Origin: a bacterium
GTDB lineage: Bacteria > Patescibacteriota > Minisyncoccia > UBA6257 > GWB1-50-10
Reading direction: 5' to 3'
DNA length: 54,677 nucleotides
Assembly (NCBI GenBank): GCA_021824045.1
Contig: JAKALR010000003.1
Location: 1-54,677, forward strand
A program made the translations under genes and the position numbers. Shown piece after piece: positions 3,291 to 47,606 of the stretch (position 1 is its first letter; each line of letters begins with the position of its first letter). Under the pieces are notes generated by a model. That model did no database searches, was not told the origin of the DNA, and was given only the letters and a program-made list of their open reading frames with translations.

Positions 3291-3308
3291 CCCGTGGAAG
3301 TACACAGG

Positions 3309-3379: not shown

Positions 3380-3392
3380 GAGAAAACTTTTT

Positions 3393-3848
3393 CTATTCTA
3401 CCTTATTTTCCGGATTTTTCCACTCCTCAACGTTGGGAACCGTATTGAGTCTCTCTTTGAAGTATTTCTCGATCATCTCGATGTCTTTCAAATCCTTTTC
3501 TCTTTTGAGCAACTTCTTCCATTTCAAGACCTCAATCAGCCTGACGAAAGGCAATCCTTCTATTATTTCCGAGTCCTCTATCAGTTGTTTTACGTTCCAC
3601 TCCCCCGGCCCCCAATCATTGAATATCTCAACACCATCGTTTGCCAACACCTCATCGCCGTTCTCCACATCTTTCAATTCCCAGCCGGACTCGTTCTTAT
3701 ATTCGTTAAAAACTTCTTCGGTGACGATGAGGTCGATGTCATGACAATCCCTCAAACCTCTCACGGCCATGGGGCCGCTGCCGAATATGGCGTACGAACC
3801 GGCCGGCAGGCCGATGTTCTTCACTTTCTCGAAAAGCTCCCACGACAT
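3393..3848 (-). CDS. Nucleotidyltransferase-fold hypothetical protein
   Basis: YAIFGSG...HDIDL (GS..DxD) motif and C-terminal REKDLKD. Confidence 0.6.
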   Translation of the reverse strand: MSWELFEKVKNIGLPAGSYAIFGSGPMAVRGLRDCHDIDLIVTEEVFNEYKNESGWELKDVENGDEVLANDGVEIFNDWGPGEWNVKQLIEDSEIIEGLPFVRLIEVLKWKKLLKREKDLKDIEMIEKYFKERLNTVPNVEEWKNPENKVE

Positions 3849-32617: not shown

Positions 32618-33373
32618 ATGGGGGAATTTGGTGAACTCGTGAATCTCATCGCGGATGCGGTCTTCCCGCCGCTTTGCCTTTCGTGCGAGAACATTCTCGG
32701 AGAGAACGAGAAGGTTCTCGCGATCTGCGGCGAATGCCTCGGTCGATTCGAAATCGGGAACGGTTTTTTCTGCCCGATCTGCCGACGAAGGTTGCCGGAA
32801 CCGAACGTGACGTGCCACAATAACGCGCGGTTTGTGCTGGCTTCGCCACTCTCCTTCGAGAACCGGGCAGTCCAGAAAATCATCCACCTCCTGAAATATC
32901 GGCACATCACGAAAGCGGCGACACCTCTCGCCTTTTTCACGGTATTTTACCTGACCACAATCTCGAGCATGAGGAGTGCCGGCCCGGAGGATTTCGTCAT
33001 GCTCCCGGTCCCGCTCCACAGATCAAAAGAACGGAGGCGGGGGTTCAATCAGGCGCTCCTCATCGCGCGGGAGATTCAGCGGCTCGCGGGAATGCTCGAC
33101 CGGGAGAAGAGGCTCCCCTCTTTCACGATCGAATCCGACGTCCTCGCGAGGGTGAAAAAGACCGCGTCGCAAACCAAGCAGAAAAACCGCGACGAGCGGA
33201 GAAGAAACGTGGAAAACGCCTTTGTTCTTACGGACAAAGCGAAAATAGAACGGAAGAACATCATGGTGGTCGATGACGTTTTCACATCCGGTGCCACCAT
33301 GGGAGAAATCGCGAAACTGCTCAAGGCAAACGGCGCGGTGAAAATCATCGCCCTGACTGCCGCGAGGACCTAA
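32618..33373 (+). CDS. comF: ComF family competence protein (phosphoribosyltransferase-like)
   Basis: FPP.C..C, PVPLH...RRRGFNQA, VDDVFTSGAT. Confidence 0.9.
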   Translation: MGEFGELVNLIADAVFPPLCLSCENILGENEKVLAICGECLGRFEIGNGFFCPICRRRLPEPNVTCHNNARFVLASPLSFENRAVQKIIHLLKYRHITKAATPLAFFTVFYLTTISSMRSAGPEDFVMLPVPLHRSKERRRGFNQALLIAREIQRLAGMLDREKRLPSFTIESDVLARVKKTASQTKQKNRDERRRNVENAFVLTDKAKIERKNIMVVDDVFTSGATMGEIAKLLKANGAVKIIALTAART

Positions 33374-34827
33374 TTTTCCTGGAATATCTTCGAGGAGCGC
33401 CCTACGTTCGCGCAATCAGAATTCTTCAAACACTGGCCGCTGCTTCCCCAGCCGGTTTGCGTCGTCGAGGTCGCGATGCAAACATTGTTGTCAATGCAAA
33501 GCCCCGTCGATTCTTGAGTCGTCATGTCGGGAGTCGCCGTCCGCGCGCCGGCATAGTTGGACCAGCCATTGCTGCCAGTGCCACCGGTGCAGTACGAACC
33601 GCCGTGGGGGCCGCCCTGGTAGCACAGTTCAACCCGGTACGCATACACGGTCCCCGGTGCGAGATTCGTATCGGTGTAGGAAGGCGCGGCGGTCAGCTTC
33701 GTTGACGTTCCGGCATTCGTGAAGTAATCATTGATGGCCACTGGGCCGCCGGTCGATTGCGCTTCAGCCGTGCCATTCATCATGTCGGCAATGCGGTTGA
33801 ACGCGCTCCCCACGGACGAAAAGATCGATCGGAGTGCATTGGAAACGGCGACAAACACATTGCTACCGCCGTAGGATACCGGACTTGCGATATTCCCCGC
33901 CACGATCGGATCGGTGCAAACGGAATCCGGCGCGCCAAGGCCGTCGGAGCGCAGCCAATCGATGCCGATGAACGAGCAATTTTGGATGCCGTAGTAATAA
34001 GAAAGACCCGGAGCGAACGGCCCCTTGTCGGTTAAGGAAATTTGCTCGCTCGTCGGACCGGCAGACGGGGTAAGATAGTTCGTTGATGTTCCACTGAATA
34101 CCGTCGTCCACACCGATGGGTCGTTCCACGTGCTTGTCGAAGGTGTTATCCCGGCAGATGTCGTAGTGGATGATTTCAAAATCGTATAGAACGGTGTGTT
34201 TCCGGTTTGCACCGTGAAATCAACATCGATCCCCTGGGAAGGGTTCTTCAGGACGTCGGGCGCCGTCGGCAGTGCCGGCGTCACCTGGATGCGCTGAATT
34301 TCGAAGTACCTCGAGGGATCAGTTGAAGTTGAATTGTCTTTCCAGTTCAAGAAGAGGGCGGTTTGTCCCCTTGAATAGACATTGAGGTTCGACGGCGTCT
34401 GGTTCGCGATAGAAAGCGTCGCGGCGCAAGCGTTCGTCGAAGACGAGGTGTTGTCATTGTACTTCGTCGTCAGCGTGTAGCAATAGGTCGTGTTCGCGCT
34501 GAGGCCGGTTTGCTGGAACGAGGTGACGGTTTTTTGGGAGACCAGCGTCGTTGCCGGCAGGGGCGAGGTTTGATTCAGCGTAAAGACGGGGCTCCGGGCC
34601 GACGTTCCGTACCAGGTTACCGACATGGTGTCGACGCTCGGCGCGAGGTAGAGCACATAGGGAGTTTCATTGCCGCTCGAAGCGCTGAGCGTTGTTGTTG
34701 TGGCGATATTCGAATCGCAGTACGTCGCCGTACACGAACCGGCGGCGCGCGCGCTCGAAACGGCAAAACCGCCCGCGAGAGCCAGGAGGCCGGATAGAAC
34801 AATTAAAGAAAATTTCCTCCCTGTCAT
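33370..34827 (-). CDS. Secreted Thr/Ser-rich fibronectin type III-domain protein
   Basis: Signal peptide; GLSANTTYCY, LNWKDNS, TDTNLAPGTVYAYRV; Cys-rich C-terminus. Confidence 0.75.
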   Translation of the reverse strand: MTGRKFSLIVLSGLLALAGGFAVSSARAAGSCTATYCDSNIATTTTLSASSGNETPYVLYLAPSVDTMSVTWYGTSARSPVFTLNQTSPLPATTLVSQKTVTSFQQTGLSANTTYCYTLTTKYNDNTSSSTNACAATLSIANQTPSNLNVYSRGQTALFLNWKDNSTSTDPSRYFEIQRIQVTPALPTAPDVLKNPSQGIDVDFTVQTGNTPFYTILKSSTTTSAGITPSTSTWNDPSVWTTVFSGTSTNYLTPSAGPTSEQISLTDKGPFAPGLSYYYGIQNCSFIGIDWLRSDGLGAPDSVCTDPIVAGNIASPVSYGGSNVFVAVSNALRSIFSSVGSAFNRIADMMNGTAEAQSTGGPVAINDYFTNAGTSTKLTAAPSYTDTNLAPGTVYAYRVELCYQGGPHGGSYCTGGTGSNGWSNYAGARTATPDMTTQESTGLCIDNNVCIATSTTQTGWGSSGQCLKNSDCANVGRSSKIFQEN

Positions 34828-34876
34828 CTTTATTATTATAGCAAATCAAGGCTTAATTATTATTGTTCAAAAACAA

Positions 34877-34916
34877 AAAACGCCATCATGTACCACAAAG
34901 GGTAATGATGGCGTAC
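34877..34916. terminator. Hairpin downstream of rSAM-1
   Basis: acgccatcat...atgatggcgt inverted repeat with an A-run flank. Confidence 0.55.
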
Positions 34917-34925
34917 GTTCGTGTT

Positions 34926-36002
34926 TTAGTTGCGATCAGATTTTAATTCGTCCAATCTGGCAGTAATGTACCGAAATGTCTCCTGGTAGGCGTGGCAGAA
35001 TGGTATATTGCCGTCATATCGCCCAGAAAACCAGAAAGCTTCCGAGCGGCAACCTCCTCTGCAAATCGGCAAGAATTCACAATTACCACAATTGGCTTTT
35101 ATGTGCTCGTCACGCATTTCCCGTAGTTTTTTAACCGAGCTATTGTTGAGTATTCTAAGAAGTGGCTCATGAAAAATATTGCCGAGCACAAATTCATTCA
35201 GGGCCAATGAGCCGCAGGGCACTACTTTCCCGCTTTGGGTGATAGTTATCATCCTTTTAAGACAGACTTCTGAGAATGAGCACAGTGTCGGTCTTGAACC
35301 GAGTAGTGACCGCAGGATGTTATCGAGTGGTTGAATTGAGGAAAAATTGTTCTCGGTATACATCCATAGATTAAACACATCTCTGTAGAGATCAAATATT
35401 TCTTCATCGCTCGGCAGGAGAGGTTTGGTCGCCAGTGGAACAGATTTTAATGGCAAGAGAGAAAAAGAATCGACGCCAATTTCCTTGAATAAATCGAAGA
35501 TTTCATGACTACGTCTGACATTGAGTTTGCTTATCACGCAGAGCGTTCTCAGCGGCAATCCATGCTGTTTGATAAGTTCGCATATGCCAAGCATTCTTTC
35601 CGGTTTGACACCCCGGTGGATCTCGCAAATTTCCAATGGGGCATCGAAACTCAAGCCAAGGTGGAAATCATTCTCTTTGAGGAAATCGAGCCAGCGATCG
35701 TCAAGAAGCGTGCCATTGGTTTGTATAGTGTTCCTAAACACAATGCCGCGTTTCTCTTTCTCCTTCTTCTCTGCGTCTAAAATCTTACTAAAGAATTCCA
35801 TGCCAACACTTAAGGGTTCGCCACCGAACCAACAAAAATCTACATTATCGAAGCCGAGAGAGCAATTCTGAATAAGTGTTCCCAGGTTTTTCGCATCAAA
35901 TCTACTTTTTTTATCCTGAGATGTGGCTGCGTGGCAATAGCTGCAATGTAAGTTACATGCAGAGGTTGTCATGGCTATGACTGTTGCCGATCTTTGTGGC
36001 AT
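34926..36002 (-). CDS. Radical SAM/SPASM peptide maturase 1 (anSME-like scaffold)
   Basis: CNLHCSYC, WFGGEPL, QTNGTLLD; SPASM C.F...C...VVPC...GNI...CGNCEFLPICRGGC. Confidence 0.88.
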   Translation of the reverse strand: MPQRSATVIAMTTSACNLHCSYCHAATSQDKKSRFDAKNLGTLIQNCSLGFDNVDFCWFGGEPLSVGMEFFSKILDAEKKEKEKRGIVFRNTIQTNGTLLDDRWLDFLKENDFHLGLSFDAPLEICEIHRGVKPERMLGICELIKQHGLPLRTLCVISKLNVRRSHEIFDLFKEIGVDSFSLLPLKSVPLATKPLLPSDEEIFDLYRDVFNLWMYTENNFSSIQPLDNILRSLLGSRPTLCSFSEVCLKRMITITQSGKVVPCGSLALNEFVLGNIFHEPLLRILNNSSVKKLREMRDEHIKANCGNCEFLPICRGGCRSEAFWFSGRYDGNIPFCHAYQETFRYITARLDELKSDRN

Positions 36003-36014
36003 TTCCTCACCCCC

Positions 36015-36215
36015 CTACGTATCAACGTAATATTCATGAGATGGAGACTCAATATAATACTGATGGAAATCAGTGTTGGCGCATCCGCTCTTTCCTTCAA
36101 TGACGCTCTTGATGATGCGTTTCACTGGGAGCGACACGTCGGATAATTTTTCCTCGGATATCTTACTTGCATCCAAGGTTACATTATCAGTAGCATCAAA
36201 CAACTCTTTCCTCAT
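36015..36215 (-). CDS. Putative RiPP precursor 1 (66 aa, tandem HxYY[IV][ED] core)
   Basis: AAGGAG RBS; 12 nt upstream of rSAM-1; core ...DFHQYYIESPSHEYYVDT. Confidence 0.7.
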   Translation of the reverse strand: MRKELFDATDNVTLDASKISEEKLSDVSLPVKRIIKSVIEGKSGCANTDFHQYYIESPSHEYYVDT

Positions 36216-36325
36216 GTCACACTTCTCCTTTTGGGATTTTTCTTCGTTACGGTTTTTTCAGAGAATCTGGACATTCCAAATTGTCCAAGGATCTGGTATT
36301 ATTATAACATAAACTAGACACTCGT

Positions 36326-37363
36326 GTGAAGATTATTTTAAAACTGAGCAAAACGGCCAATTTCTTCTTTTTCGTCAGTAATCTGTCGGAATGGCACTTT
36401 TCCTGCCGAAAAACATACAACGAGGCGTGGCTTAAAAAAACCGGGCCGCTCAAAGCCGAAGAAAAAAAAGTATTGTTATTATTCAAGAAAATAATGAAGC
36501 GGCGCGGATTTTCCCGAGACAAAGATTGGCAAAGTGAATATCTCGGCAAATATTTCTATCTGTTTCCAAAAGAGAGCGTTTGGAGGGAACTTAAAAAAAC
36601 TGCAAGCGAAAAGGAAATACAGCAGTTGAAAATGATCTTTGACGTCGTGCGTCCCCGGTTTGAAAAGATATGGAAATCGTATGATCCCGGGAAGAGAGTA
36701 TCTATCATCGAAAGATATATACACAGCAGGCTCTATACAAAACTTCTGGATGATTTGGGGATGGTTTTCGGAGGAAAAAAGAGTATGCTTGAGAAACTCA
36801 ACGTCGTCATTATCGTTTCCCCTCTCGGCAAAGAGACGACAGCGGCCGGCGGAGCAAACACGGGCCCAAGCAGCATAACCCTCGAACTTCCCAGCCTGAG
36901 ACCAAAGACTTGGCAACTGGACTTTTCCGCGATGATTCTCGCCCATGAAATAGCCCACAGTCTCTTTGAAAGACGCGGTGGTGCCGAACTTATTTCAAAA
37001 TCCATCACGAGATTGAGATTACCAAAAACAATCAAAAATCTTCCCGAAGGATTCAGCACCATGCAGTTGATCAACGAAGCCCTTACGGGAAGTTTCGTGC
37101 CACTCGGTTACTTTGGTCAAAAGTATACCCAATTCAGATTAGCCCCGCTTTTGTTAAACGATTTAAACAAGGGTCTCATTGGTTATCAAAAACTGTCATG
37201 CGGAGAGAAGATAAACTATTACAATGAATTGGAATATTATCTCATCCCCAGCTTGTATTCTCTCGCAATCATCTATGGGAGGAATAAAAAATCAATCGAC
37301 CGGAATTTCGTTCTTGAGGTAGCGAAAACTATAAAAACCTCTCTGCGCTACCGTTCACCGTAG
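36326..37363 (+). CDS. HExxH metalloprotease-like protein
   Basis: ILAHEIAH plus downstream NEAL third-ligand-like motif; stop codon supplied by the 65-bp repeat. Confidence 0.6.
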   Translation: MKIILKLSKTANFFFFVSNLSEWHFSCRKTYNEAWLKKTGPLKAEEKKVLLLFKKIMKRRGFSRDKDWQSEYLGKYFYLFPKESVWRELKKTASEKEIQQLKMIFDVVRPRFEKIWKSYDPGKRVSIIERYIHSRLYTKLLDDLGMVFGGKKSMLEKLNVVIIVSPLGKETTAAGGANTGPSSITLELPSLRPKTWQLDFSAMILAHEIAHSLFERRGGAELISKSITRLRLPKTIKNLPEGFSTMQLINEALTGSFVPLGYFGQKYTQFRLAPLLLNDLNKGLIGYQKLSCGEKINYYNELEYYLIPSLYSLAIIYGRNKKSIDRNFVLEVAKTIKTSLRYRSP

Positions 37364-37396
37364 CGCCTCACTTTCTCCCATATGGGAAAAAGTGAA
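37332..37396. repeat. 65-bp double-hairpin repeat A, copy 1
   Basis: Identical to 39810-39874; contains gcgctaccgttcaccgtagcgc and tcactttctcccatatgggaaaaagtga palindromes. Confidence 0.9.
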
Positions 37397-37398
37397 AT

Positions 37399-37453
37399 CC
37401 ACTGCACGGTGAAACCATTTGCCGAAACGGCGGTCGTTGTCACACCGGTCGGC
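37399..37453 (-). pseudogene. 55-bp relic of the FN3 C-terminus of the 47607-49787 surface protein
   Basis: Encodes PTGVTTTAVSANGFTVQW, matching PTGVTTTAVSANSFTVQW at ~47793-47848 with mostly silent changes. Confidence 0.75.
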
Positions 37454-37517
37454 CTGTTTGTTAAAGTTTTCGCATGCTCCCAATAAGCGGCAACGGAGCG
37501 TGATACACTTATTACAT

Positions 37518-38192
37518 ATGGAGTTGATTCTTATCCGACACGGCGAAACCAAAGAGGGCAAAAAGGGGATTTTATTGGGACAACTTCCGGGTACATTGAC
37601 GGCCAAGGGGCGCAGGTTTGCCGACGAAGTCGGTCGCGTGATCGCCGGATTTTCATATCGCTCCCCGCTTATTATCGCAAGTGATTTAGAACGATCAAAA
37701 GAAACCGCGCGCGCCATTGCGCGGATTACGCACGCGCCTTTAAAATGTGATAGATTGCTCCGGGAACGGAACGGAGGCATCGACGAGGGGAAAAAAGAAA
37801 GTCAAATAAATTGGAAAGAATATGAAAGGAGGCCACTCGCCTATCGCCGGCACGAAGGGGGAGAAAGTTTTGCTGATGTTAAGAAGCGAGCGAGCGCATT
37901 TCTGGAAAAAATACAAAAGGAAAAGCATTCACCGATCATTATTGTTTCCCATCAAGCGCTTATTTCCACGCTGCTCTCAGAACTTTTTGGTTGGAGCTAT
38001 CCAAAAGCCCTTAAGTTTGATCTTAAAAACAAGTTGGTCATTGTGAATACAAAAAAACGGGAGTGGACGAAATCACACTCCCGTTTAAGGATTGTTCTAG
38101 TTGATATGAGAGTATCATTGCTCGGTTATTATCGTGTGCAGCTTATGAGCAATAATATCACGAATCATGGCACATCGATCGACAGGAAATGA
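37518..38192 (+). CDS. Histidine phosphatase (phosphoglycerate mutase family)
   Basis: LIRHGET, SDLERS.ETA, LRER..G, GES, VSH; 3' end overlaps rSAM-2 by 78 nt. Confidence 0.85.
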   Translation: MELILIRHGETKEGKKGILLGQLPGTLTAKGRRFADEVGRVIAGFSYRSPLIIASDLERSKETARAIARITHAPLKCDRLLRERNGGIDEGKKESQINWKEYERRPLAYRRHEGGESFADVKKRASAFLEKIQKEKHSPIIIVSHQALISTLLSELFGWSYPKALKFDLKNKLVIVNTKKREWTKSHSRLRIVLVDMRVSLLGYYRVQLMSNNITNHGTSIDRK

Positions 38193-39368
38193 GCTAAACC
38201 AGTCACCGTTCTTGGAATAAACACATCCGCCCCGACAATGCCATTTTGCAAAACATGTCGCACAGCCGGGCATGTTCAAAACGTGGAACTGACGAACTGA
38301 TTCAACTGATTCATCGCGAATCGTGACGCCCCGATCGGTCACCATGCCGATTTCGAACGATTTGGCAAATGCGCTTTTGTCATTGAAAGAAATGGTGCAC
38401 GCAGAGATGGTACCGTCCGGTGACACCGAATAGTTGGGAATTGGCACAGAACATGGAAATGGCGACACCGAATGAATATCAGTACCCGTCAGATTGATAT
38501 CCATACCTTTTGCGCGGTAATCTTTCCACAATTCGAAGTATGCTTTTCCAAGCGCGGCATAATCAACAGTAGATTTGCCTCCAAGGGCTCGACCGAGATT
38601 TTCTTTAAGGCTGAGAAAGATATGTTTCACACCATATGTATACATCTCATCGACAATCTCCCGAAGATGTCCACTGTTCGACTCAGAAACTACCACGAGT
38701 ACGCTCATTGGAACGTTGTTCTCGAGAAGAAAACCAATGTTTCCCCACACGCGTCTTGCAATCTGCGCGTTGCCACCATATCTGAGGTTTTTGTCTCCGA
38801 AACCATCCCAGGAAACTTGCACTTCCTTCATGTCACCAATAATTCTGGTAAATTTCTTGCGACTAAAAAGGCCGTTCGTGAGAAGACGAGGTATTAACTC
38901 AGTTTTTGCTCCCAATCTACTTCTAGCATATGCGATCGTCTTTTCTATGAATGGTGTGCGTAACGTTGGTTCTCCGCCTGAATAGACTATTTCTAGAAAC
39001 TTGGCGCCGGTTTCTTCGGCGAATTTACAAAAACCGTCGATCGCGTTCTTTGCAATTACCTCCGGCATGTCTGTCACAGGACCGCTATCGGCCCGCACAC
39101 TGCAATAACGACATTCTAAATTACAACCAGTCGTTATGTTGAGACGAAGACGAATCTTTTCTTTGTCGAACACAAACCCCTTATTGCGGATAAAGTCGGG
39201 AACGTTTTTCATGTCCGATGCTTCCTTTAGCCATTCTTCATCGACATCTTCTAGTGTAATTATACCGTCATAGACGGTAAAAAATCTGGTCAGAGGAGCA
39301 TAAAAGAGCGTCTGACCATCGAGGTGGATTGCGTACACCTCTTCTCTTAGTAACCTTTCGTCCAACAT
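38115..39368 (-). CDS. Radical SAM/SPASM peptide maturase 2
   Basis: CNLECRYC, SGGEPTL, TNG, SWDG; SPASM CSVP...PDG.ISAC...CATCFAKWHCRGGC. Confidence 0.88.
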   Translation of the reverse strand: MLDERLLREEVYAIHLDGQTLFYAPLTRFFTVYDGIITLEDVDEEWLKEASDMKNVPDFIRNKGFVFDKEKIRLRLNITTGCNLECRYCSVRADSGPVTDMPEVIAKNAIDGFCKFAEETGAKFLEIVYSGGEPTLRTPFIEKTIAYARSRLGAKTELIPRLLTNGLFSRKKFTRIIGDMKEVQVSWDGFGDKNLRYGGNAQIARRVWGNIGFLLENNVPMSVLVVVSESNSGHLREIVDEMYTYGVKHIFLSLKENLGRALGGKSTVDYAALGKAYFELWKDYRAKGMDINLTGTDIHSVSPFPCSVPIPNYSVSPDGTISACTISFNDKSAFAKSFEIGMVTDRGVTIRDESVESVRQFHVLNMPGCATCFAKWHCRGGCVYSKNGDWFSSFPVDRCAMIRDIIAHKLHTIITEQ

Positions 39369-39415
39369 TGTAGTCTCCTTTCTACTCCCTGATCTTATTT
39401 TTCAGATAAAATGCA

Positions 39416-39444
39416 GGGGGTTAGAATCAGAAATTCCAACCCCC
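39416..39444. terminator. Stem-loop between precursor 2 and rSAM-2
   Basis: gggggttagaat...attccaaccccc. Confidence 0.55.
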
Positions 39445-39450
39445 AACAGG

Positions 39451-39567
39451 CTACTTCGACAGGATGCGTGTATTTGAACAGCAACCGAATGTCGAAGCGC
39501 GATTTCCGTCGGAAATCTTGCCCGAGACAACTTTTTTGGGCTTTTTTACAACAGCAATCTTTTTCAT
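39451..39567 (-). CDS. Putative RiPP precursor 2 (38 aa, not in ORF track): MKKIAVVKKPKKVVSGKISDGNRASTFGCCSNTRILSK
   Basis: GGGAGG RBS, ATG at 39567, TAG at 39453-39451; upstream TTGACA-16 nt-TATATT promoter; co-oriented just upstream of rSAM-2. Confidence 0.7.
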   Translation of the reverse strand: MKKIAVVKKPKKVVSGKISDGNRASTFGCCSNTRILSK

Positions 39568-39809
39568 TGCCTCTTCCTCCCTTCTTACCTAATATTCCCG
39601 CACTCCAATTGGCTGAAATCCACCCTGGATTTCATTTAACTTTATTGAACCAAAAGCGCGTGAAAATATGTAGGGTTTTTTGTTTAAAGACTGATATTAA
39701 TATAATATCATTGATCATCTTGTCAAGGGCCTCGGATTGAACCGGGGATCTAGCGGCGATCAGTATTTTGCTGATATCACTTGGGACATATGAGAGAAGT
39801 GGGTATCAT

Positions 39810-40043
39810 TAAAAACCTCTCTGCGCTACCGTTCACCGTAGCGCCTCACTTTCTCCCATATGGGAAAAAGTGAAGCAACTGGTTCAAAACATACGATCGC
39901 ACAAAGTGTACCAATAGCAAGGATAGGCGAAGAAGCAGTGCTACAAAATATGCGATCGTTGAATTTGTAGCACAGGAGGGCGGCCGGAAAATAAAGAACA
40001 CCGTCAGCACATTGAGCGCTGGCGGTGTTTACATACACTCTTC
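39810..40043. repeat. Composite repeat block: repeat A copy 2, repeat B, repeat C and a terminator shared with 45715-45810
   Basis: 39876-39922 = 42850-42896; 39930-39983 = 42921-42974; 39948-40043 nearly equals 45715-45810. Confidence 0.88.
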
Positions 40044-40064
40044 AGACATTGAAGAAGGTCCTTT

Positions 40065-41633
40065 CTACTTAAGGAGATTCATCTTCTTCGTCTGGACGAA
40101 GTTGCCGGCCTGGAGACGGTAGAAATAGACACCTGAAGCTAAGCTTGATCCGTTGAATTGGACCGAATAGCTTCCGGGGCTCTTTTCTCCGTCAACCAAC
40201 GTCGCAACTTTTTGTCCAAGAACGTTGAAAATGGTCAGGTTAACGATAGTTCTTTTTTGGACCGAGAATTGAATGGTCGTTGTCGGGTTGAAGGGATTCG
40301 GATAGTTCTGGAGCAATGTGAAAGTTGCCGGGCCGTGTGAAGGCTCATCGACGCCGGTCACGATCTTGAAGGACCATGACGCGGAGTCCGATGCTCCTGA
40401 AGCATCGCTCACGACAACGGAAACCGTTGTCGCCGACGAGATCTCCCTGAAGGTATATATCAGGGAATCGCAACCGGCAGAAACAACGTTGCCGTTCACT
40501 TTCCAGGTATAGGAAAGTGAATCGCCGTTCGGGTCCGTTGCCGCAACCGAGAAGGTCATCGGCACGTTGACTCCAACAGAGTCCATCGAGGATGGCATTT
40601 GGGATGCGATCTGAGGAGGCGAAACGACACTGAGCGTCAGGATATAAATGGAACCATTGATGTTTGCCAAGAGATGCGTGCTGTCGAGCTGCATCATGGC
40701 GCCTATCTGGTAACCTTTGAATCCGAAAACGCTCCATGTCGCACCGTTGTCGGTCGAGCGGAACAAGCCGTCGCTCACGATGTTGTTGCCATCACCCACG
40801 AACAATCCGAGATTGCTCGAAGCGAGAATGCTGGGATAACTAACGCCTACCGGAGTAGTTGGCACGGGAACTTTTTGCCAGGTTTTGCCGTCGTCGGTGG
40901 ATTTATAGACTCCTGCATCTTTCGTCGCCGCGAAGACTGTGCCATCTGATGCTTCTTCGAAATTCTCAACGCAATCCAGATCAGCACCATCTCCCGTCGG
41001 CAAACCGCTCGCTATGTTCCATGTGAAACCGTTATCGGTTGATCGGTAAACACCGTACCACTGAGGACTTATTCCCCCAACCCCCATTAGAACCGTGCCC
41101 TTGCTTGTGGTAAACAAACTCGCTGCAGTATTCCAATGGAAAGGAGAATTATCGGTAATAGAACTCCAGGTTTGGCCGTCATCAATGGATCGATAGAGAG
41201 AATCTTGTCCACCGCTGATGATTGATCTATTGGGTGCTACCGTGAAATAACGTCCAGCTTTCGTTGCGATGGTTTCCCATGCGCTTCCTCCATCTATCGA
41301 CCTTCCAAACACACTCCCCAATCCTGTCGCAAGTAGTGTTCCCGAGTCGGTAACTCCCAAAGCAAGAGTGATACCGCCGCTGAACTTAAGGTTCAGAGTC
41401 TGCCACGTTTTCCCGCTATCCGAGGAACGAATGAGATTGTTGGTGCTCGTCTGTCCCACGATATACTCACCGCTTCTCACGAAACGATAAATATAGGAAA
41501 AGTTACTGACATTCATGGTGTCAACCGGGAATACGCGGATCTGATCTGTGATCATCAGCCCCCTGGTCCCTTGTCCGAGAACAATCGCTGCAATGCTCAA
41601 AAGGAGCATTGCGATCATCATCAAACGTTTCAC
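40065..41633 (-). CDS. Secreted BNR/Asp-box beta-propeller protein with Ig/PKD-like domain and T9SS type-A (Por) C-terminal sorting domain, paralog 1
   Basis: Signal peptide; many RS.D.G.TW repeats; tail LLQNYPNPFNPTTTI...IFNVLGQ...SGVYFYRLQAG...KKM.LLK. Confidence 0.85.
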   Translation of the reverse strand: MKRLMMIAMLLLSIAAIVLGQGTRGLMITDQIRVFPVDTMNVSNFSYIYRFVRSGEYIVGQTSTNNLIRSSDSGKTWQTLNLKFSGGITLALGVTDSGTLLATGLGSVFGRSIDGGSAWETIATKAGRYFTVAPNRSIISGGQDSLYRSIDDGQTWSSITDNSPFHWNTAASLFTTSKGTVLMGVGGISPQWYGVYRSTDNGFTWNIASGLPTGDGADLDCVENFEEASDGTVFAATKDAGVYKSTDDGKTWQKVPVPTTPVGVSYPSILASSNLGLFVGDGNNIVSDGLFRSTDNGATWSVFGFKGYQIGAMMQLDSTHLLANINGSIYILTLSVVSPPQIASQMPSSMDSVGVNVPMTFSVAATDPNGDSLSYTWKVNGNVVSAGCDSLIYTFREISSATTVSVVVSDASGASDSASWSFKIVTGVDEPSHGPATFTLLQNYPNPFNPTTTIQFSVQKRTIVNLTIFNVLGQKVATLVDGEKSPGSYSVQFNGSSLASGVYFYRLQAGNFVQTKKMNLLK

Positions 41634-41782
41634 TTTCTTAACGCTCCTTTCGAGTTTTTATCGGTGAAACAACCGTTATGAACTTTATTTACAATCTAAG
41701 GGAAGATTCCTTAGTCTGGTTATATTATACCACAAACAACGAAAAAAGGCAAAAATATTGATTTCCCTTTATTAATGCGGAT

Positions 41783-42376
41783 TTATTGGAGCAATCCCCT
41801 AATGAAGATATTGTACGTCGTCGAGGCATTTAGACCACTAATTCCGAGGGTTTGGGTCCCTGTTGCACTCAAAGCGCTCTGGAGATTCGAGGGGATGGGA
41901 TAGGATTGATAGCAACTGGGATTATTGGCCGGATTCGGCGTACTCGACGGACAAATATTAAAGTTTGGATCCTGTGCACTAAAAAGGTAGATCCCCATCT
42001 GCTTATACGACTGCGGGTTGGTCCATTGCACGGTGAAACCGTTGGAAGTGACGCTCGCGGAAGGGATCGTGACATTCGTCGGCCACTGGTTGCCGCCGGT
42101 CACGTTTGCCGTCGTGACGCAGTAGCTCGAACCGCACCAGGACATTTGTCCCAGGACGTTCACCGGCGTTGTGGGGGTTTGTCCCCCGAAGTTGCCAGTC
42201 GAGGGGTTGTAGGAGATGTCGCTCAAATCGACGAGTCCGTTCCAAGAGCTATTGCTTCCGTCGCCGAATGAAAGGAATTTAGCCTCGCCGGAAAGTTTCC
42301 CCGTCGACGAATCTATCTTGGGGGCTTGGCCCGACGGCACATCGGAAGGATTGAACGACAGCCAGCCATAGCCGCC
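41783..42376 (-). pseudogene. Orphan (startless) alternative C-terminus of the 47607-49787 surface protein
   Basis: GYGWLSFN...TPTTPVNVLGQMSWCGSSYCVTTANVTGGNQWPT shared with the full-length gene, followed by a different FN3 end; no signal peptide or good start. Confidence 0.75.
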
Positions 42377-42568
42377 CTATTTCTTCAATTTTTGTATACC
42401 CAAATCTTGGCAGATTTTCTCTGCTAAGAAATTATTAATCTCCTGATGGCGCGGTACCGTCGAAACCCTTCTGGTTTCGGGATTAAAAAAGACGCTGTGT
42501 CTAGCGCCCTCGCGTACAAAAACGCAACCTTGTTTCATGATGTGGTTTATAAGATCGCGTCTCTTCAT
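42377..42568 (-). CDS. hicA: HicA-family toxin
   Basis: MKRRDLI.H....GC.F.REGARH...VPRH.EI. Confidence 0.88.
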   Translation of the reverse strand: MKRRDLINHIMKQGCVFVREGARHSVFFNPETRRVSTVPRHQEINNFLAEKICQDLGIQKLKK

Positions 42569-42780
42569 AAAGACACGAAAATCGGTTCTCTTAAGATTTT
42601 GGAGTCGGAGCTCTTAACCAAAAACTTGCCCGTTTCCAGAACAAGCACCAGAGCTTCCTTGAGGTTTTCTTTGGCTTCTTTTAGCGTGCGGCCCTGAGTA
42701 TTAACGCCGGGAATTTCTTCTATCCATGCGGAGTACCATTTTCCAGTTTTTTTATAAACGGCTGTAAATTGTCGGCTCAT
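42565..42780 (-). CDS. hicB: HicB-family antitoxin (short, no DNA-binding domain)
   Basis: EEIPGVNTQGRTLKEAKENLKEAL; ATGA overlap with hicA. Confidence 0.88.
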   Translation of the reverse strand: MSRQFTAVYKKTGKWYSAWIEEIPGVNTQGRTLKEAKENLKEALVLVLETGKFLVKSSDSKILREPIFVSL

Positions 42781-42849
42781 AATACTTCAATAGTATCATA
42801 GATTTATTTAAAAACAAGCGTATATTCGAACACTTGCCGGATTTTGGAA

Positions 42850-43113
42850 CAACTGGTTCAAAACATACGATCGCACAAAGTGTACCAATAGCAAGGGTGG
42901 GCAAAGAGGCAGCGCTACAAAAGAAGCAGTGCTACAAAATATGCGATCGTTGAATTTGTAGCACAGGAGGGCGGTTCAAAAGAAAGAAGGCTGACATATG
43001 CAGAGCATAGTCATCCTTCGAAAATCCGATTCCTAAAGAGGAATCCGAACCTTCTTTTTTGCAATCAATGAAGTATTGGCACAAAAAAAGACGATCGCAC
43101 CAAGCGTACCAAT
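42850..43113. repeat. Second copy of repeats B and C plus a degenerate B copy at 43091-43113
   Basis: caactggttcaaaacatacgatcgcacaaagtgtaccaatagcaagg; gtgctacaaaatatgcgatcgttgaatttgtagcac; acgatcgcaccaagcgtaccaat. Confidence 0.8.
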
Positions 43114-43185
43114 GAGACACTCGGAAAACAAAGAACCATAGGTTGATATTATTATAATACAAGTCGGGAACCAAAAACGCCTCCA

Positions 43186-43905
43186 TTAAATTGATTTTGC
43201 GCAAATAAAGTATATCCTGTCGGAGACTTCTGACGCGCGGTCACCGTTCCCATCAATGACGTCAACCCCTTTAAACATTTTCTTAAGGGATCTCTCAATC
43301 TCTATGATAGGGAATGAACATTCTTTTATATTCTCGGAACTTACCACCTCCCCACCGTTTATGCCGCCCTTCATAACCTTAATGTCCCAGTTATAAATCT
43401 CCATTTCTTTTATCACACTTATCACCACTCTCCCATCGTTGAGTATTCTTATTATTGGATTCGATTGAGTTAATTTTTCTAACTTCTGCCGCGTATTAAT
43501 ATCAAAGATAAAAATACCCCCACCATTTAAATGGCGATAAGCACGAGAAAATGCATGCTCCCAATTTTCATAATTCAGTAGGTGGTTCATGGTATCGAAT
43601 ATACACAAAACGACATCATATCTCCCGGAGAGAGAAAAATTTGATATATCCTGATGAGATAAGTGAGCATTGGGGACTTTCTGTCGCGCAATTGAAAGCA
43701 TTTCCTCCGATGTGTCAATGCCAACAACAGAGTATCCGAGATCAGAGAAATATTCTAAAAACATTCCTGTTCCGCACCCTAATTCTAAGATGGTTTTTGC
43801 TTGTGGATTGTATTTCTTAATTAATTCTTCGATAAACTTTTCTCCATTTTTCCTATCCCCCATCGCGGAATCATAAAATTTAGCAAAAGCCCCGTAGTTA
43901 GTCAT
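43186..43905 (-). CDS. Class I SAM-dependent methyltransferase
   Basis: ILELGCGTG, GIDTSEEML, L..GGIFIFD. Confidence 0.88.
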   Translation of the reverse strand: MTNYGAFAKFYDSAMGDRKNGEKFIEELIKKYNPQAKTILELGCGTGMFLEYFSDLGYSVVGIDTSEEMLSIARQKVPNAHLSHQDISNFSLSGRYDVVLCIFDTMNHLLNYENWEHAFSRAYRHLNGGGIFIFDINTRQKLEKLTQSNPIIRILNDGRVVISVIKEMEIYNWDIKVMKGGINGGEVVSSENIKECSFPIIEIERSLKKMFKGVDVIDGNGDRASEVSDRIYFICAKSI

Positions 43906-43945
43906 ATCCCTATTTTACACTCTCGCAAAAGAATTGAGAAACAAA

Positions 43946-43971
43946 AGAGCTCATCGATATAAGATGAGCTC
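43946..43971. terminator. Hairpin after rSAM-3
   Basis: gagctcatc...gatgagctc with A-run flank. Confidence 0.55.
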
Positions 43972-43988
43972 AGTGCTACCAAAAATAT

Positions 43989-45368
43989 TCAGAGAGCAAA
44001 GCCATACTCCCTGAGAAGAGGGGCAACCTTTCTCTTAAAGAAAGAGACCGCCAAGCAGGCATAGTCGTCTTTCGCGTTGTAAAAATCACCGTGGAGAAAA
44101 TAAGCATTTGCCCGACATCCCGTGCCACAGAGTTCTCGCAGTTTGCATCCTCTGCAACCAGCAACATCGCCGATCTTCACCGTTTTTACCTCGCGCATTT
44201 TGTCGGAGTACCAAATATTCCAAATTGATGATTGTTTAATATTACCAATCGGCAATTCAGAACAGTAGGCACAGGAAACGACATCACCGTTCGGTTTCAC
44301 GCAACATTCGGACCTACGACCCTCATAATCACAAACGAAATCGTTATCCGTAAGTTTCTGGAAACCTTGTTCAAAGAGCTGTTCCCTGAACAAATATTCA
44401 ATTTGCAAGTGAAACGGCATGCCGTTCGCCAAATGTCGCCGCAAAAGGACTAAACAGCGCTCGGCAATAATACCCCATTCTACGTTGAATGTTGCGCGGT
44501 AATTCTTGAACTCCGGCGTCATCTTGGGAAAACCAAGTCTCCAACTGCTCACACTCATCCTTTTCACCAGATCATACATTGCATCAAGATGATCAATATT
44601 CTCCATGTTCACCACGGTGTTCACGACTACACTGATCCCTTTTGAGGTTAATAGCATAATGTTCCGCACTATGCGCTCGAGCACTTTCCTGGAATCCTTA
44701 CTGGAGAAACCCCGAAAGGAAAAGTCCACGCCGGGGATCGAATCAAGGCTGACAAAAAGCGAGAACTGACTGCGCAACTCCTGGACCGCCTGGATGAACC
44801 TGCCGTTTATCAACAGACCGTTCGAGAATATCGCAGAAATTCTCATCTTTCTCTCCTCGATGGCTGATAGCACATCGGCAAGCCGGGACATCATCAACGG
44901 CTCGCCGCCACTGATCCCGATGTTATTTACCTGCATGCCCTGCAAATCATCAAGAAGGCGAATAATCTCGTCGAAGCTCAACTCTTCGCCGCTCTTGACA
45001 TATTCAGCTTGATAGCAGTGAACGCATTTCATATCGCACTTACCGCTCGCTTCTAGATGGACTGCCTCAAGTCTTCTGTCCGGCACTTGATTTCTCCCGA
45101 GAACTCTTGGCGCGGATGCATTAGTAAATTCTACAGCTGAGATATTTTTCAGTTGATCAATGAATTGTAATACATCAACCCTCGAGGTTTTGGCGTATTG
45201 TTTGAGTATCTGTTCCACAGTGTTCGTGCCGTCAAGTGACTGGAGGAATTCAACCTGGTCGGCAGTCAACTCATAGGTAGTACCATTCCGCAAACAATAA
45301 AGAGTGCTCATTGATGTGGAATGCTTCAGTGTGAAATCGCCCGCTAACGAAACATATTGATTGGGCAT
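43989..45368 (-). CDS. Radical SAM/SPASM peptide maturase 3 with N-terminal RRE (PqqD-like) domain
   Basis: GAGGAGG RBS before MPNQYV; N-terminal ..YEL....EFLQSLDG..TVEQI winged-helix pattern; CDMKCVHC, SGGEPL; SPASM C...PNGDVVSC...GNI...CRGC.LRELCGTGCRA. Confidence 0.88.
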   Translation of the reverse strand: MPNQYVSLAGDFTLKHSTSMSTLYCLRNGTTYELTADQVEFLQSLDGTNTVEQILKQYAKTSRVDVLQFIDQLKNISAVEFTNASAPRVLGRNQVPDRRLEAVHLEASGKCDMKCVHCYQAEYVKSGEELSFDEIIRLLDDLQGMQVNNIGISGGEPLMMSRLADVLSAIEERKMRISAIFSNGLLINGRFIQAVQELRSQFSLFVSLDSIPGVDFSFRGFSSKDSRKVLERIVRNIMLLTSKGISVVVNTVVNMENIDHLDAMYDLVKRMSVSSWRLGFPKMTPEFKNYRATFNVEWGIIAERCLVLLRRHLANGMPFHLQIEYLFREQLFEQGFQKLTDNDFVCDYEGRRSECCVKPNGDVVSCAYCSELPIGNIKQSSIWNIWYSDKMREVKTVKIGDVAGCRGCKLRELCGTGCRANAYFLHGDFYNAKDDYACLAVSFFKRKVAPLLREYGFAL

Positions 45369-45420
45369 ACGAGCCTCCTCTTTTTTAAAAGTACTTAACG
45401 TACAAAAACTATAGAATAAT

Positions 45421-45450
45421 GGGTGGAATGCTTTTGAGAACACTCCACCC
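45421..45450. terminator. Stem-loop between precursor 3 and rSAM-3
   Basis: gggtgga...tccaccc. Confidence 0.5.
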
Positions 45451-45469
45451 CCGCTGGAGCCGAGTGAAA

Positions 45470-45589
45470 CTACGAACCCGGCGCACTGGCGTTCAGGGCC
45501 TGCGTCAGTCTTACCTGAAGCACCCTCTTTTTGAGTAAAGAGTTTTTCAGGACCTTCTGACCGGCCCCTTTTACCAGGGGCTTTTTCAT
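45470..45589 (-). CDS. Putative RiPP precursor 3 (39 aa, not in ORF track): MKKPLVKGAGQKVLKNSLLKKRVLQVRLTQALNASAPGS
   Basis: GAGAGG RBS, ATG at 45589, TAG at 45472-45470; upstream TATAAT; same layout (peptide, hairpin, rSAM) as cassette 2. Confidence 0.62.
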   Translation of the reverse strand: MKKPLVKGAGQKVLKNSLLKKRVLQVRLTQALNASAPGS

Positions 45590-45714
45590 AACAGCCTCTC
45601 TACAGTTTTTGTTAAGCAAGTAACTTCACAGAAAAGCCTGCAAATACCAATTACCTGCCCTATGATTATAATAACACAAAAATAAACCATTCGTAATAAA
45701 AACGCCGCCTCGCT

Positions 45715-45810
45715 ATATGCGATCGTTGAATTTGTAGCACAGGAGGGCGGCCGAAAAATAAAGAACACCGTCAGCACATTGAGCGCTGGCGGTGTTTACA
45801 TACACTCTTC
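45715..45810. repeat. Right half of repeat C plus terminator, shared with 39948-40043
   Basis: atatgcgatcgttgaatttgtagcacaggagggcggccg...aacaccgtcagcacattgagcgctggcggtgttt. Confidence 0.85.
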
Positions 45811-45826
45811 CATTGAAGAAGATCTC

Positions 45827-47473
45827 CTATTTAAGTAATTCCATCTTCTTGATCTGGGAGAAGGTTCCAGCTTGGAGACGGTAGAAATAGACGCCGCTGG
45901 AGAGATTCGATCCATTGAATTGGACCGAGTAGCTTCCGGGGTTCTTTTCTCCGTTTACCAAAACTTGAACTTCTTGCCCCAAAATATTGAAGATAGACAA
46001 GTGAACGAAAATGGGTTTTGAGACCGAGAATTCGATCGTGGTGGTCGGGTTGAAAGGATTCGGGTAGTTCTGGAGCAATGTGAAAGTCGCCGGGCCGTGA
46101 GAGGGCTCATCGACGCCGGTCACGATCTTGAAGGACCATGACGCGGAGTCTGATGCTCCCGATGCATCACTCACGACGACGGAAACCGTTGTCGCCGACG
46201 AGAGTTCCCTGAAGGTATATATCAGGGAATCGCAACCGGCAGAAACAACGTTGCCATTCACTTTCCAGGTATAGGAAAGTGAATCACCGTTGGGGCTGCT
46301 TGCCGCAACCGAGAAGGTCATCGGCACGTTGACTCCAACGGAGTCCATTGAAGATGGCATCTGGGATGCTATTTCCGGCGGGTTGGATGGGGTATACGAA
46401 ACGATGTATATACCGGATCCTGTACCCGCAAGGATTCTACCGCCACCGTAAGGATAGAGACAGTATCCATTGGTATTCGCGAGACCAACAAACTGCCACG
46501 TTTTACCGGAGTCTGCTGAATAATAGAGGCCTGCATCTCCGCTTATTCCCGCGCCAATATCATTGTGGTATATCGCCCACACTTTTCCATTGGCCGCGAG
46601 AACCGCAGAGGCATACTTCGGCATCGGAGTCGACCCATTGACCTGAATCCAGCTTTGACCGTCGTCATTGGAGCGGAAGATTCCCTCTCCATCAGTCGCG
46701 GCGTAGACAACGCCAGTCGAAGAATCACACGACAACCCCCAGATGTTGTATCCGTTGGCTGCCATGTTTCCATTCGAGTCCAGTGTGCCATCACCGATGT
46801 TGCCGATCTGACCAATGAGACCACTGTCGGCCTCCATCCAAGTGCCGCTATCACCATTGTCAGTGGAACGGTAAATTCCCGAAGTCCATCCTTGAGGATC
46901 ACCATTGCCAGTACCAGCGATAATTGTTCCTCTCGGCGTGAAAGTAATAGCACGAAAACCACCAATTGGAGGATTAAGTACATTGAGCCAGTCCGAACCG
47001 TTATCGATTGAACGATAAACAGATCCCCCAAAACCAGTTGCCACGAACATATTACTATCCTTTATGCTTATCGCTAAAGGACCGGTAGAGTTGAGGCCCT
47101 GCACAGAATTCCAAGAATTGCCGTTATCAGTGGAATTGAAAAGGTCACCTCCTGTTCCCAAGAACAATGTTCCATTTGAATTTGCCTCAATGGCATATGC
47201 GGATGCAAATGGCATATTGGCGCCCTTGAGACCATTCATTAAATGAACCCAGGTGCTTCCTCCATCAGAAGAGCGATAGAGGTAATCAGTTCCGGTACCA
47301 GCGAAAATATTTCCACTTCTATCAACAAAGAGGGAGGCGACGGCAGCGTTGATTTTTCCACCATCGAGGATATTTTTCATTTGGAATTTTGTGGTAACGT
47401 TCGTCTGACTCCAAACCGCTATTGGCCAGATGCTCGCGAGGAGCACCAAAGCAAAAAGAATGATTCGCTTCAC
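45827..47473 (-). CDS. Secreted BNR beta-propeller protein with Ig/PKD-like domain and T9SS type-A C-terminal domain, paralog 2
   Basis: Same RBS/start context (aaaggagcgttaagaaaGTG) as paralog 1; highly similar last ~180 aa; divergent propeller. Confidence 0.85.
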   Translation of the reverse strand: MKRIILFALVLLASIWPIAVWSQTNVTTKFQMKNILDGGKINAAVASLFVDRSGNIFAGTGTDYLYRSSDGGSTWVHLMNGLKGANMPFASAYAIEANSNGTLFLGTGGDLFNSTDNGNSWNSVQGLNSTGPLAISIKDSNMFVATGFGGSVYRSIDNGSDWLNVLNPPIGGFRAITFTPRGTIIAGTGNGDPQGWTSGIYRSTDNGDSGTWMEADSGLIGQIGNIGDGTLDSNGNMAANGYNIWGLSCDSSTGVVYAATDGEGIFRSNDDGQSWIQVNGSTPMPKYASAVLAANGKVWAIYHNDIGAGISGDAGLYYSADSGKTWQFVGLANTNGYCLYPYGGGRILAGTGSGIYIVSYTPSNPPEIASQMPSSMDSVGVNVPMTFSVAASSPNGDSLSYTWKVNGNVVSAGCDSLIYTFRELSSATTVSVVVSDASGASDSASWSFKIVTGVDEPSHGPATFTLLQNYPNPFNPTTTIEFSVSKPIFVHLSIFNILGQEVQVLVNGEKNPGSYSVQFNGSNLSSGVYFYRLQAGTFSQIKKMELLK

Positions 47474-47606
47474 TTTCTTAACGCTCCTTTCTGAGCTTTC
47501 TGTTAAGCAATCAGTTATTGAGAAATGACAAGCAAGGATTTATTTAACTTCATCCTTGGCTGTTAAGTATTATACCACAAATCGCTGAAAAATGGAAGGG
47601 GTAGAT

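Follow-up and report, generated by a model that had tools for sequence, protein, structure and literature searches.

A lysine-rich peptide gene beside a radical SAM/SPASM enzyme and a histidine phosphatase: a candidate RiPP module of CPR bacteria

Bacteria that belong to the Candidate Phyla Radiation (CPR; Patescibacteria) have very small genomes and depend on hosts, and to our knowledge few systems for peptides made on the ribosome and modified after translation (RiPPs) have been described for them. Here we analysed a stretch of 54,677 nt from such a bacterium (contig JAKALR010000003.1 of assembly GCA_021824045.1; the whole stretch is called the window below), with a focus on an open reading frame (ORF) for a peptide of 38 amino acids (aa) and on the gene that follows it, which encodes a radical S-adenosylmethionine (SAM) enzyme with a SPASM domain, named rSAM-2. 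The assembly amounts to 611,871 bp in 32 contigs, of which the window is contig 29, and has an estimated completeness of 97.7%; the genomes of relatives measure 0.5–0.9 Mb. An earlier reading of these letters, referred to as the original prediction, had taken the ORF for the precursor of a new thioether RiPP with a GCCS core.

Results

The peptide gene and its signals

Inspection of the reverse strand recovered the 38-aa Lys-rich ORF with a translation identical to the one given before (Table 1). The local signals that had been listed for it were found as well: the strong ribosome binding site corresponds to GGGAGG ahead of the ATG, the separate promoter to a predicted upstream site that matches 11 of the 12 consensus bases, and the stem-loop in front of rSAM-2 to a 13-bp hairpin with the enzyme gene behind it. 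The TTGACA-16-TATATT site is the best promoter-like site of the region. However, the region as a whole contains six such sites versus 3.6 ± 1.8 in shuffles, so that only the quality of this one stands out. The peptide comprises 8 Lys and 2 Arg. Residues 1–15 form a variable Lys-rich N-flank, residues 16–34 the conserved block GKISDGNRASTFGCCSNTR, and ILSK the tail. The open frame that encloses the ORF spans only 45 codons, and an intergenic ORF of 38 codons is not significant alone; its significance comes from conservation.

Table 1. Features of the peptide, enzyme and phosphatase genes and of the flanking repeats (window positions)
Feature	Position	Strand	Remarks
Candidate precursor peptide gene	39451..39567	-	38 aa, stop codon included; translation MKKIAVVKKPKKVVSGKISDGNRASTFGCCSNTRILSK
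Shine-Dalgarno-like GGGAGG	39576..39581	-	8 nt 5' of the peptide ATG; read from the sequence
Promoter-like site TTGACA-16 nt-TATATT	39699..39726	-	131 nt 5' of the peptide ATG; consensus match only
Stem-loop, 13-bp stem, 3-nt loop	39416..39444	-	starts 6 nt past the peptide stop; then T-rich TGCATTTTAT
rSAM-2, radical SAM/SPASM enzyme	38115..39368	-	417 aa; starts 82 nt past the peptide stop, behind its own GGAG
Histidine phosphatase, His_Phos_1 branch 1	37521..38192	+	223 aa; convergent to rSAM-2; Pfam PF00300
Left copy of perfect 65-nt direct repeat	37332..37396	.	family D6, 100% identity
Right copy of perfect 65-nt direct repeat	39810..39874	.	family D6, 100% identity

A conserved peptide family precedes one clade of enzymes

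We inspected 18 ortholog loci, 14 of them metagenomic (L010–L023) and four genomic (L087–L090). The enzyme start is contained in 15, including L016, which has just 67 nt upstream; L013, L014 and L015 are mutually identical. In all 14 loci that hold upstream DNA, an ORF with the same block lies just 5' of the rSAM-2 ortholog on the same strand. A search for similar short ORFs upstream of rSAM-2 homologs had been proposed as a check on the prediction, and it came out in favour of a precursor gene: together with the coding signature described below, the 14 of 14 assessable loci tie a precursor-type gene to rSAM-2. A profile of the peptide family was compared with the six-frame translations of 166 loci. 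It matched in the 14 ortholog loci and in three loci of the window's own genome with E values of 1e-13 to 1e-19, while the next best hit had E = 0.1. The peptide was absent from about 130 loci around radical SAM homologs of 22–29% identity from Bacteroidota, Proteobacteria and other phyla. In an earlier and looser scan with a regular expression, which the profile search replaces, 83 distant loci gave just two unrelated matches.

Within the 20-codon block of 13 loci, mean pairwise identity was 0.70, 0.71 and 0.35 at codon positions 1, 2 and 3. Synonymous differences (pS 0.79) exceeded nonsynonymous ones (pN 0.29) in 78 of 78 pairs, which are not independent as the loci are related, but the direction was unanimous nonetheless. 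That is, the peptide ORF is a real protein-coding gene under purifying selection. The locus also has what marks a radical SAM-dependent RiPP, a conserved short ORF beside a radical SAM/SPASM gene on the same strand.

The peptide has no match among Pfam and NCBIfam models. A word-indexed search with a family profile, whose first row is a natural 52-aa homolog, returned 15 proteins, and an exhaustive profile search of 1.84 billion proteins returned 18 representatives of 33–111 aa, none within a larger protein. Proteins and loci combined yielded 31 distinct 19-residue cores, all in free-standing ORFs of 32–111 aa. Asp20, Ala24, Cys30 and Asn32 are invariant in these cores (31/31), followed by Gly16, Ile18, Ser25 and Arg34 (30/31 each), Gly21 (27/31), Thr33 (26/31) and Phe27 (25/31, replaced by His or Ala in the remaining six). 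The letters GCCS are indeed present in the window's peptide, but they do not form the conserved element, since the first Cys of the pair, Cys29, occurs in just 7 of the 31 cores (otherwise Ser in 14, Thr in 6, Asn in 3 and Val in 1). Each family member has one or two Cys, one of which is invariant. Judged by this alignment, not GCCS but G-x-I-x-D-G-x-x-A-S-x-F-[GS]-x-C-x-N-[TV]-R is the conserved unit, and a single Cys in it is essential.

The flanks vary, with 5–87 aa on the N-terminal side as called (the long ones reflect generous ORF calls) and 3–19 aa on the C-terminal side. With flanks this variable, and an N-flank of down to five residues, the family lacks a long conserved leader of the classical kind, and the block itself must be what is recognised. 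Depending on the member, a Lys/Arg-rich tail precedes or follows the block, and basic residues outnumber acidic ones in all members (K+R 7–26 versus D+E 1–9).

A hairpin separates peptide and enzyme genes

At the equivalent spot, between the peptide stop and the enzyme start, a stem-loop was found in 13 of 13 loci analysed, with differing sequences. Stems of 9–14 pairs were scored by script in 12 of them, and the interrupted stem of L090 was read by eye. The hairpin of the window folds with a z-score of -2.58 against dinucleotide shuffles and -4.33 against mononucleotide shuffles. Across the 13 loci, at least six T are among the 10 nt past the stem in nine, none of 200 shuffles folded as well in seven, and the z-score is weaker than -2 in five. 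In the window, a G+C-rich stem-loop is followed by a T run, as in an intrinsic terminator or attenuator, and we infer from this sequence pattern that the hairpin may serve as a partial terminator or attenuator. The order precursor, attenuator, enzyme is the usual one for RiPPs.

rSAM-2 resembles the thioether synthase CteB

The radical SAM motif CxxxCxxC of rSAM-2 consists of C82, C86 and C89, and seven further Cys lie in the C-terminal part (C306, C324, C369, C372, C378, C382 and C399); all of these are invariant in 38 sequences. The seven fit the canonical SPASM pattern C-x12-G-x4-C ... C-x2-C-x5-C-x3-C ... C, and the CxxCx5Cx3C stretch aligns with that of CteB. Thus the protein combines CxxxCxxC with a seven-Cys SPASM domain, as is characteristic of the enzymes of radical SAM-dependent RiPPs. 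Pfam detects only the radical SAM core (Radical_SAM, 50 bits versus a cut-off of 29.5), and its SPASM model gave no match at E ≤ 0.01. The protein scores below the cut-off of every NCBIfam model; PapB (NF047865) ranks first, while the anaerobic sulfatase maturase model TIGR03942 reaches 45.1 bits versus a cut-off of 349.45 and the QhpD model 58.2 versus 453.

A profile search with the rSAM-2 clade ranked CteB first (5wgg, E 7e-26), followed by TigE (3e-13), SkfB (2e-12) and the anaerobic sulfatase-maturating enzyme (anSME, 1e-11). The AlphaFold2 model of rSAM-2 (pLDDT 87, pTM 0.86) gave the same top match in Foldseek (CteB, TM 0.72), followed by anSME, ChlB, SkfB, SuiB and TigE. With VIA-align, CteB was superposed over 365 residues (model residues 6–415, Z 29.9, rmsd 3.3 Å), whereas ChlB (Z 26.3) and anSME (Z 25.8) align just from residue 67–71 onward. 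The difference lies in an N-terminal domain of about 70 aa with strands 12–16, 19–24 and 29–34 plus helices; enzymes without such a domain align over 331–341 residues. On the predicted model, rSAM-2 has a CteB-like fold together with CteB-like cluster motifs.

A histidine phosphatase is the third partner

The phosphatase gene starts at ATG 37521 in a frame that opens at TTG 37419, and its 3' end overlaps that of rSAM-2 by 78 nt. The protein scores 120 bits on His_Phos_1 versus a cut-off of 21.7 and belongs to branch 1; the catalytic His residues, that of the RHG motif and a second one in SH, are invariant in 12 module phosphatases. A convergent phosphatase follows the radical SAM gene in 17 of the 18 ortholog loci, with 33–63% identity and including Gracilibacteria that use code 25; the exception is L011. 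Other neighbour genes differ from locus to locus. Thus the phosphatase belongs to the module by conserved linkage.

The genome itself carries three further His_Phos_1 genes, and the best match to the module phosphatase in eight same-genus genomes has about 35% identity (E 1.6e-16), which indicates an accessory gene that travels with the module. We therefore rejected the idea of a housekeeping gene beside which a cassette had landed by chance: the same-genus best is only about 35% identical, and the module copies (33–63%) are always adjacent. Pairwise identities of enzyme and phosphatase across 12 loci correlate with a Pearson coefficient of 0.80 and a Spearman coefficient of 0.48 (66 non-independent pairs). 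Among solved structures, CobC-type phosphatases come closest (E 2e-12), a match that does not define the substrate. In one relative (G099) a phosphatase ortholog with 49% identity stands beside a different SPASM gene.

Among 134 other loci, L134 alone has the phosphatase. This locus (3013–3788; Gracilibacteria, code 25) holds the last 60 codons of a radical SAM gene and then, in the same orientation, an intact module-type phosphatase; it looks like a module copy in decay. As a separate observation, most relatives have a His_Phos_1 domain in an open frame of about 1,130–1,380 aa, a fused protein found family-wide, which in this genome lies at C2:12835-13338.

The module is rare and bracketed by repeats

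The orthologs of rSAM-2 are labelled Patescibacteria, Saccharibacteria or Gracilibacteria in the source databases. Its 43 relatives with 37–60% identity (E 6e-172 to 1.5e-56) are separated by a gap from the next ones at 25%. Among the genomes of 100 relatives, six gave matches at E ≤ 1e-10, all with just 25–29% identity; no match was found in eight same-genus genomes, nor at E ≤ 1e-40 in 400 genomes sampled across the phylum. One genome per species for 185,579 species contained four intact module loci and one remnant. By these sequence surveys, the trio of peptide, enzyme and phosphatase is rare and restricted to CPR bacteria (Patescibacteria, Gracilibacteria). Neither this confinement nor the conserved phosphatase partner is part of the original prediction.

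In the window, the two 65-nt repeats bracket the three genes and the promoter at 37397–39809, and half of the repeat, a palindrome, is found at other places in the genome too. Contigs from four DNA runs of one study have one and the same module sequence, and a look-up of runs that cover 37300–39900 listed no RNA run. The public contigs of these runs end exactly at the repeats, one contig being the module itself. No excision joint between the repeats was present in the contigs of the four runs, leaving aside a few listed joints with sides of 22–24 nt, and no listed contig bridges the right-hand junction. The bracketing by repeats and the patchy spread over CPR classes fit horizontal transfer of the module as a cassette.

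The module comes without a dedicated protease or exporter. PADLOC returned just generic viperin-model matches to the radical SAM core and none for the phosphatase, and the reading as a defence system thus gained no support. Rfam gave no match at E ≤ 0.1 over 33000–48000, and the best ESM Atlas matches, 0.87–0.88 to unnamed clusters, lay below the level of evidence. A literature search in a collection with few of the subscription journals found no description of this system.

Discussion

A proposed route to a thioether peptide

The genomic data strongly support the 38-aa ORF as the precursor of rSAM-2, and we regard it as very likely that the peptide would be the substrate of this enzyme. For the reaction, formation of a thioether within the peptide is the best single guess, to which homology lends a probability of about 0.5. 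The peptide gene would be transcribed from its own predicted promoter, and the hairpin past the stop codon would let just part of the transcripts continue into the enzyme gene. As a CteB-like radical SAM/SPASM maturase, rSAM-2 would recognise the conserved block itself, because some members have just five residues before it. The N-terminal domain of rSAM-2 probably receives the G-x-I-x-D-G segment as a docked strand, and the first auxiliary cluster probably holds Cys30 at its open iron. A nearby invariant residue would then lose an H atom to the 5'-deoxyadenosyl radical, and a single thioether would close within the peptide. As the acceptor of this link we would prefer Asn32 (i+2), since it mirrors the Cys(i)-Thr(i+2) link reported for CteB, with Asp20 and Thr33 as alternatives. 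The outcome would be a small peptide with a strongly basic character and a single cross-link.

The following points on CteB come from excerpts of PMC8326336. The enzyme possesses an N-terminal RiPP recognition element (RRE), to which the leader peptide binds in the form of a strand; in one cluster of its SPASM domain an iron is open and can bind a substrate Cys; and it makes a Cys-to-Thr C-gamma thioether, which one report places at a Thr two residues downstream of the Cys. The same excerpts give Asn, Thr and Asp as acceptors in ranthipeptides.

Several observations weigh against a thioether. The identity of rSAM-2 to CteB is just about 20%, Pfam gives no PqqD/RRE match for the N-terminal domain, and the NCBIfam models of thioether maturases all stay far below their cut-offs (PapB 80.5 versus 340, SCIFF 62.6 versus 425 and StsB 45.6 versus 625 bits). 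The spacing of Cys-x-Asn-x-Arg is reminiscent of the motif in sulfatase maturation, and among the fold matches anSME ranks second or third. We know of no thioether pathway in which a histidine phosphatase has a place, and a full-text literature search found nothing that joins such a phosphatase to a radical SAM precursor-peptide system. Finally, the family has one conserved Cys as opposed to several in the sacti- and ranthipeptide precursors named in the excerpts of PMC8326336.

Alternative functions

The spacing around Cys30 could also reflect an anSME-like oxidation, which we consider unlikely. In that case rSAM-2 would abstract a C-beta H of Cys30 and leave a formylglycine-type aldehyde or a related oxidised residue in C-x-N-T-R, so that the peptide would be reactive or a cofactor precursor, not cross-linked. 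The sulfatase maturation motif reads C/S-x-P/A-x-R, and Cys30 (31/31 cores) and Arg34 at i+4 (30/31) repeat the distance between the target Cys of anSME and its Arg. Both enzymes share the SPASM fold: anSME chains are among the top folds of rSAM-2 (TM 0.63–0.73; Z 25.8 over 333 residues), an anSME model is among the NCBIfam matches, and a module without exporter or protease would suit such a reaction. However, the substrate of anSME is a large enzyme instead of a free peptide, and position +2 is Asn in all 31 cores, never the Pro or Ala of the sulfatase substrate motif, which is thus not present. The model score (45.1 bits) is far under the anSME cut-off of 349, and the profile E value is 1e-11 versus 7e-26 for CteB. 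Furthermore, both auxiliary clusters of anSME are fully ligated, by eight Cys, whereas rSAM-2 has only seven invariant C-terminal Cys, and its extra N-terminal domain aligns with CteB and falls outside the anSME alignment, which starts at residue 70.

Possible, though doubtful, is another radical SAM chemistry on the peptide, such as epimerisation, a C-C or C-O cross-link, or a modification of Asp20 or Asn32, with the Cys as a mere cluster ligand or handle. SPASM enzymes of the same fold catalyse many reactions (ChlB, TigE, SuiB, PqqE and the epimerase EpeE are among the fold matches), rSAM-2 passes no family cut-off, and in the CteB crystal the open cluster iron is bound by a Cys outside any cross-link (PMC8326336, excerpts). 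But 6 of the 31 cores have His or Ala in place of Phe27, the sole aromatic position, which speaks against a cyclophane or a Trp/Tyr-type link, and the best full-length match in sequence and fold is a thioether synthase. There is only a slight chance that the peptide is no substrate at all, and instead a stand-alone small basic protein, co-inherited with rSAM-2, that binds nucleic acid or the ribosome or regulates the phosphatase. The surplus of basic residues throughout the family, the basic tail that may precede or follow the block, the missing protease and exporter and the phosphatase conserved beside the pair would agree with this; its strict position 5' of one radical SAM clade, the precursor-hairpin-enzyme layout that is standard for RiPPs, and the invariance of Cys, Asn and Asp, which typically act as donors and acceptors (PMC8326336, excerpts), speak for a precursor.

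A broader proposal, which we rate as rather improbable, takes peptide, enzyme and phosphatase as one undescribed functional unit that spreads horizontally among CPR bacteria as a 2.4-kb cassette and whose modified peptide stays in the cell with the phosphatase instead of being exported as an antibiotic. In one form, the peptide, with a cross-link or an aldehyde, would serve the phosphatase as a small subunit, cofactor or regulator, by analogy with QhpC and its dehydrogenase; in the other, it would be a substrate cycling through a phosphorylated state.

Comparison with known systems

The best match of rSAM-2, by profile and by full-length fold, is the SCIFF system of ScfB/CteB (thermocellin; PDB 5WGG, 5WHY). 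CteB and rSAM-2 share an N-terminal domain, a radical SAM barrel and a seven-Cys SPASM domain, and both systems are minimal, with a precursor gene and then a maturase and no dedicated exporter. The invariant C-x-N of the CPR peptide has the same spacing as the Cys-to-Thr link of CteB at +2 (PMC8326336, excerpts). On the other hand, CteB is only about 20% identical, and rSAM-2 stays below the threshold of its model TIGR03974. According to the same excerpts, SCIFF precursors have six Cys in about 45 residues and are spread among Clostridia (PMC8326336), whereas the peptide family of rSAM-2 has one invariant Cys, does not qualify as a SCIFF precursor and is confined to CPR bacteria. The conserved phosphatase neighbour is a feature of the CPR module, unlike SCIFF.

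PapB is the top NCBIfam model for rSAM-2, yet the score falls short of its cut-off. Freyrasin-type precursors carry a repeated Cys-X3-Asp/Glu motif, which is absent from the CPR peptide family. The acceptors of PapB and NxxcB are carbons next to the functional group of Asp/Glu or Asn (PMC8326336, excerpts), and the CPR peptide has the invariant Asp20 and Asn32; in NxxcA, however, the Asn is upstream of the Cys (Asn20-Cys23; PMC8326336, excerpts), whereas in the CPR peptide it is two residues downstream. The QhpC/QhpD system of quinohemoprotein amine dehydrogenase offers a further parallel: a radical SAM/SPASM enzyme makes Cys-Asp/Glu thioethers in a small intracellular polypeptide that forms part of an enzyme (PMC8326336, excerpts), and an enzyme gene, that of the phosphatase, is the conserved neighbour in the CPR module. 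But rSAM-2 is far below the QhpD cut-off, and the CPR module has no dehydrogenase subunit.

The system fails the tests for SCIFF, PapB, sactipeptide maturases and anSME, yet it is nearest to CteB/SCIFF in fold and layout. New are the precursor family without a model, its single invariant Cys, the confinement to CPR bacteria and the conserved histidine phosphatase partner. The module represents a compact, clearly delimited and experimentally tractable candidate radical SAM-RiPP family from CPR bacteria. Its presumed substrate is unusually simple, and with one invariant Cys in a block of 19 residues it could provide a clean model for the choice of donor and acceptor by CteB-like enzymes. The phosphatase partner is without precedent in the radical SAM-RiPP literature searched, and may point to a new tailoring or partner function.

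The surrounding region

Two further peptide-enzyme cassettes flank the module. Cassette 1 consists of a 66-aa acidic ORF (36015–36215, reverse strand) that ends ...HQYYIESPSHEYYVDT and lies 12 nt upstream of rSAM-1 (34926–36002, reverse strand), whose best models are anSME (204 bits versus 349) and the dynobactin maturase DynA (180 versus 450). In cassette 3, all on the reverse strand, a 39-aa Lys-rich Cys-free ORF (MKKPLVKGAG..., 45470–45589) precedes rSAM-3, a radical SAM/SPASM protein of 484 aa (43989–45443), and a SAM methyltransferase (43186–43905) whose best NCBIfam model is a daptide-type RiPP methyltransferase (64 bits versus a cut-off of 175). Three different radical SAM-peptide cassettes thus stand side by side in a 0.61-Mb genome, which suggests a value for an episymbiotic lifestyle.

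Two candidates for additional module components were rejected. The neighbouring radical SAM genes do not travel with the module, as L087 and L021 have extra radical SAM genes that are orthologous to neither rSAM-1 nor rSAM-3. A 345-aa ORF (36326–37363, forward strand) with an HExxH motif (AHEIAH) was considered as a leader peptidase and dismissed, since no homolog lies near any other module. This ORF has no Pfam, NCBIfam or PADLOC match, and its last 32 nt fall inside the left 65-nt repeat. A different HExxH protein adjoins the phosphatase ortholog in L156.

Secreted BNR/sortilin-like paralogs with a type IX secretion C-terminal sorting domain (Por_Secre_tail) are encoded on the reverse strand at 40065–41633 and 45827–47473, both directly upstream of a peptide-plus-rSAM cassette. 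Por_Secre_tail was above the cut-off in 34 of 101 genomes, this one included, and in 31 of 60 same-family genomes versus 2 of 40 from other families of the order. Type IX sorting tails also adjoin distant radical SAM homologs in L007, L052, L058, L091, L092, L109 and L121. The segment 37300–48100 is a mosaic of segmental repeats, with intergenic elements that recur at 39871–40043, 42845–42974 and 45697–45810. The 3' parts of the genes with the sorting tails are 80–85% identical, and a 185-aa ORF (41783–42340) is a truncated copy of a 726-aa gene (47607–49787), of which a 56-nt fragment also lies at 37399–37454. Thus the radical SAM cassettes appear to have been inserted into a duplicated array of surface-protein genes. 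Other unrelated radical SAM/SPASM genes and TehB-like methyltransferases occur at most 3 kb from the module in further loci (L021 293–1558, L087 5588–7051 and L156 2223–2651), which suggests that such cassettes cluster in islands across several CPR loci.

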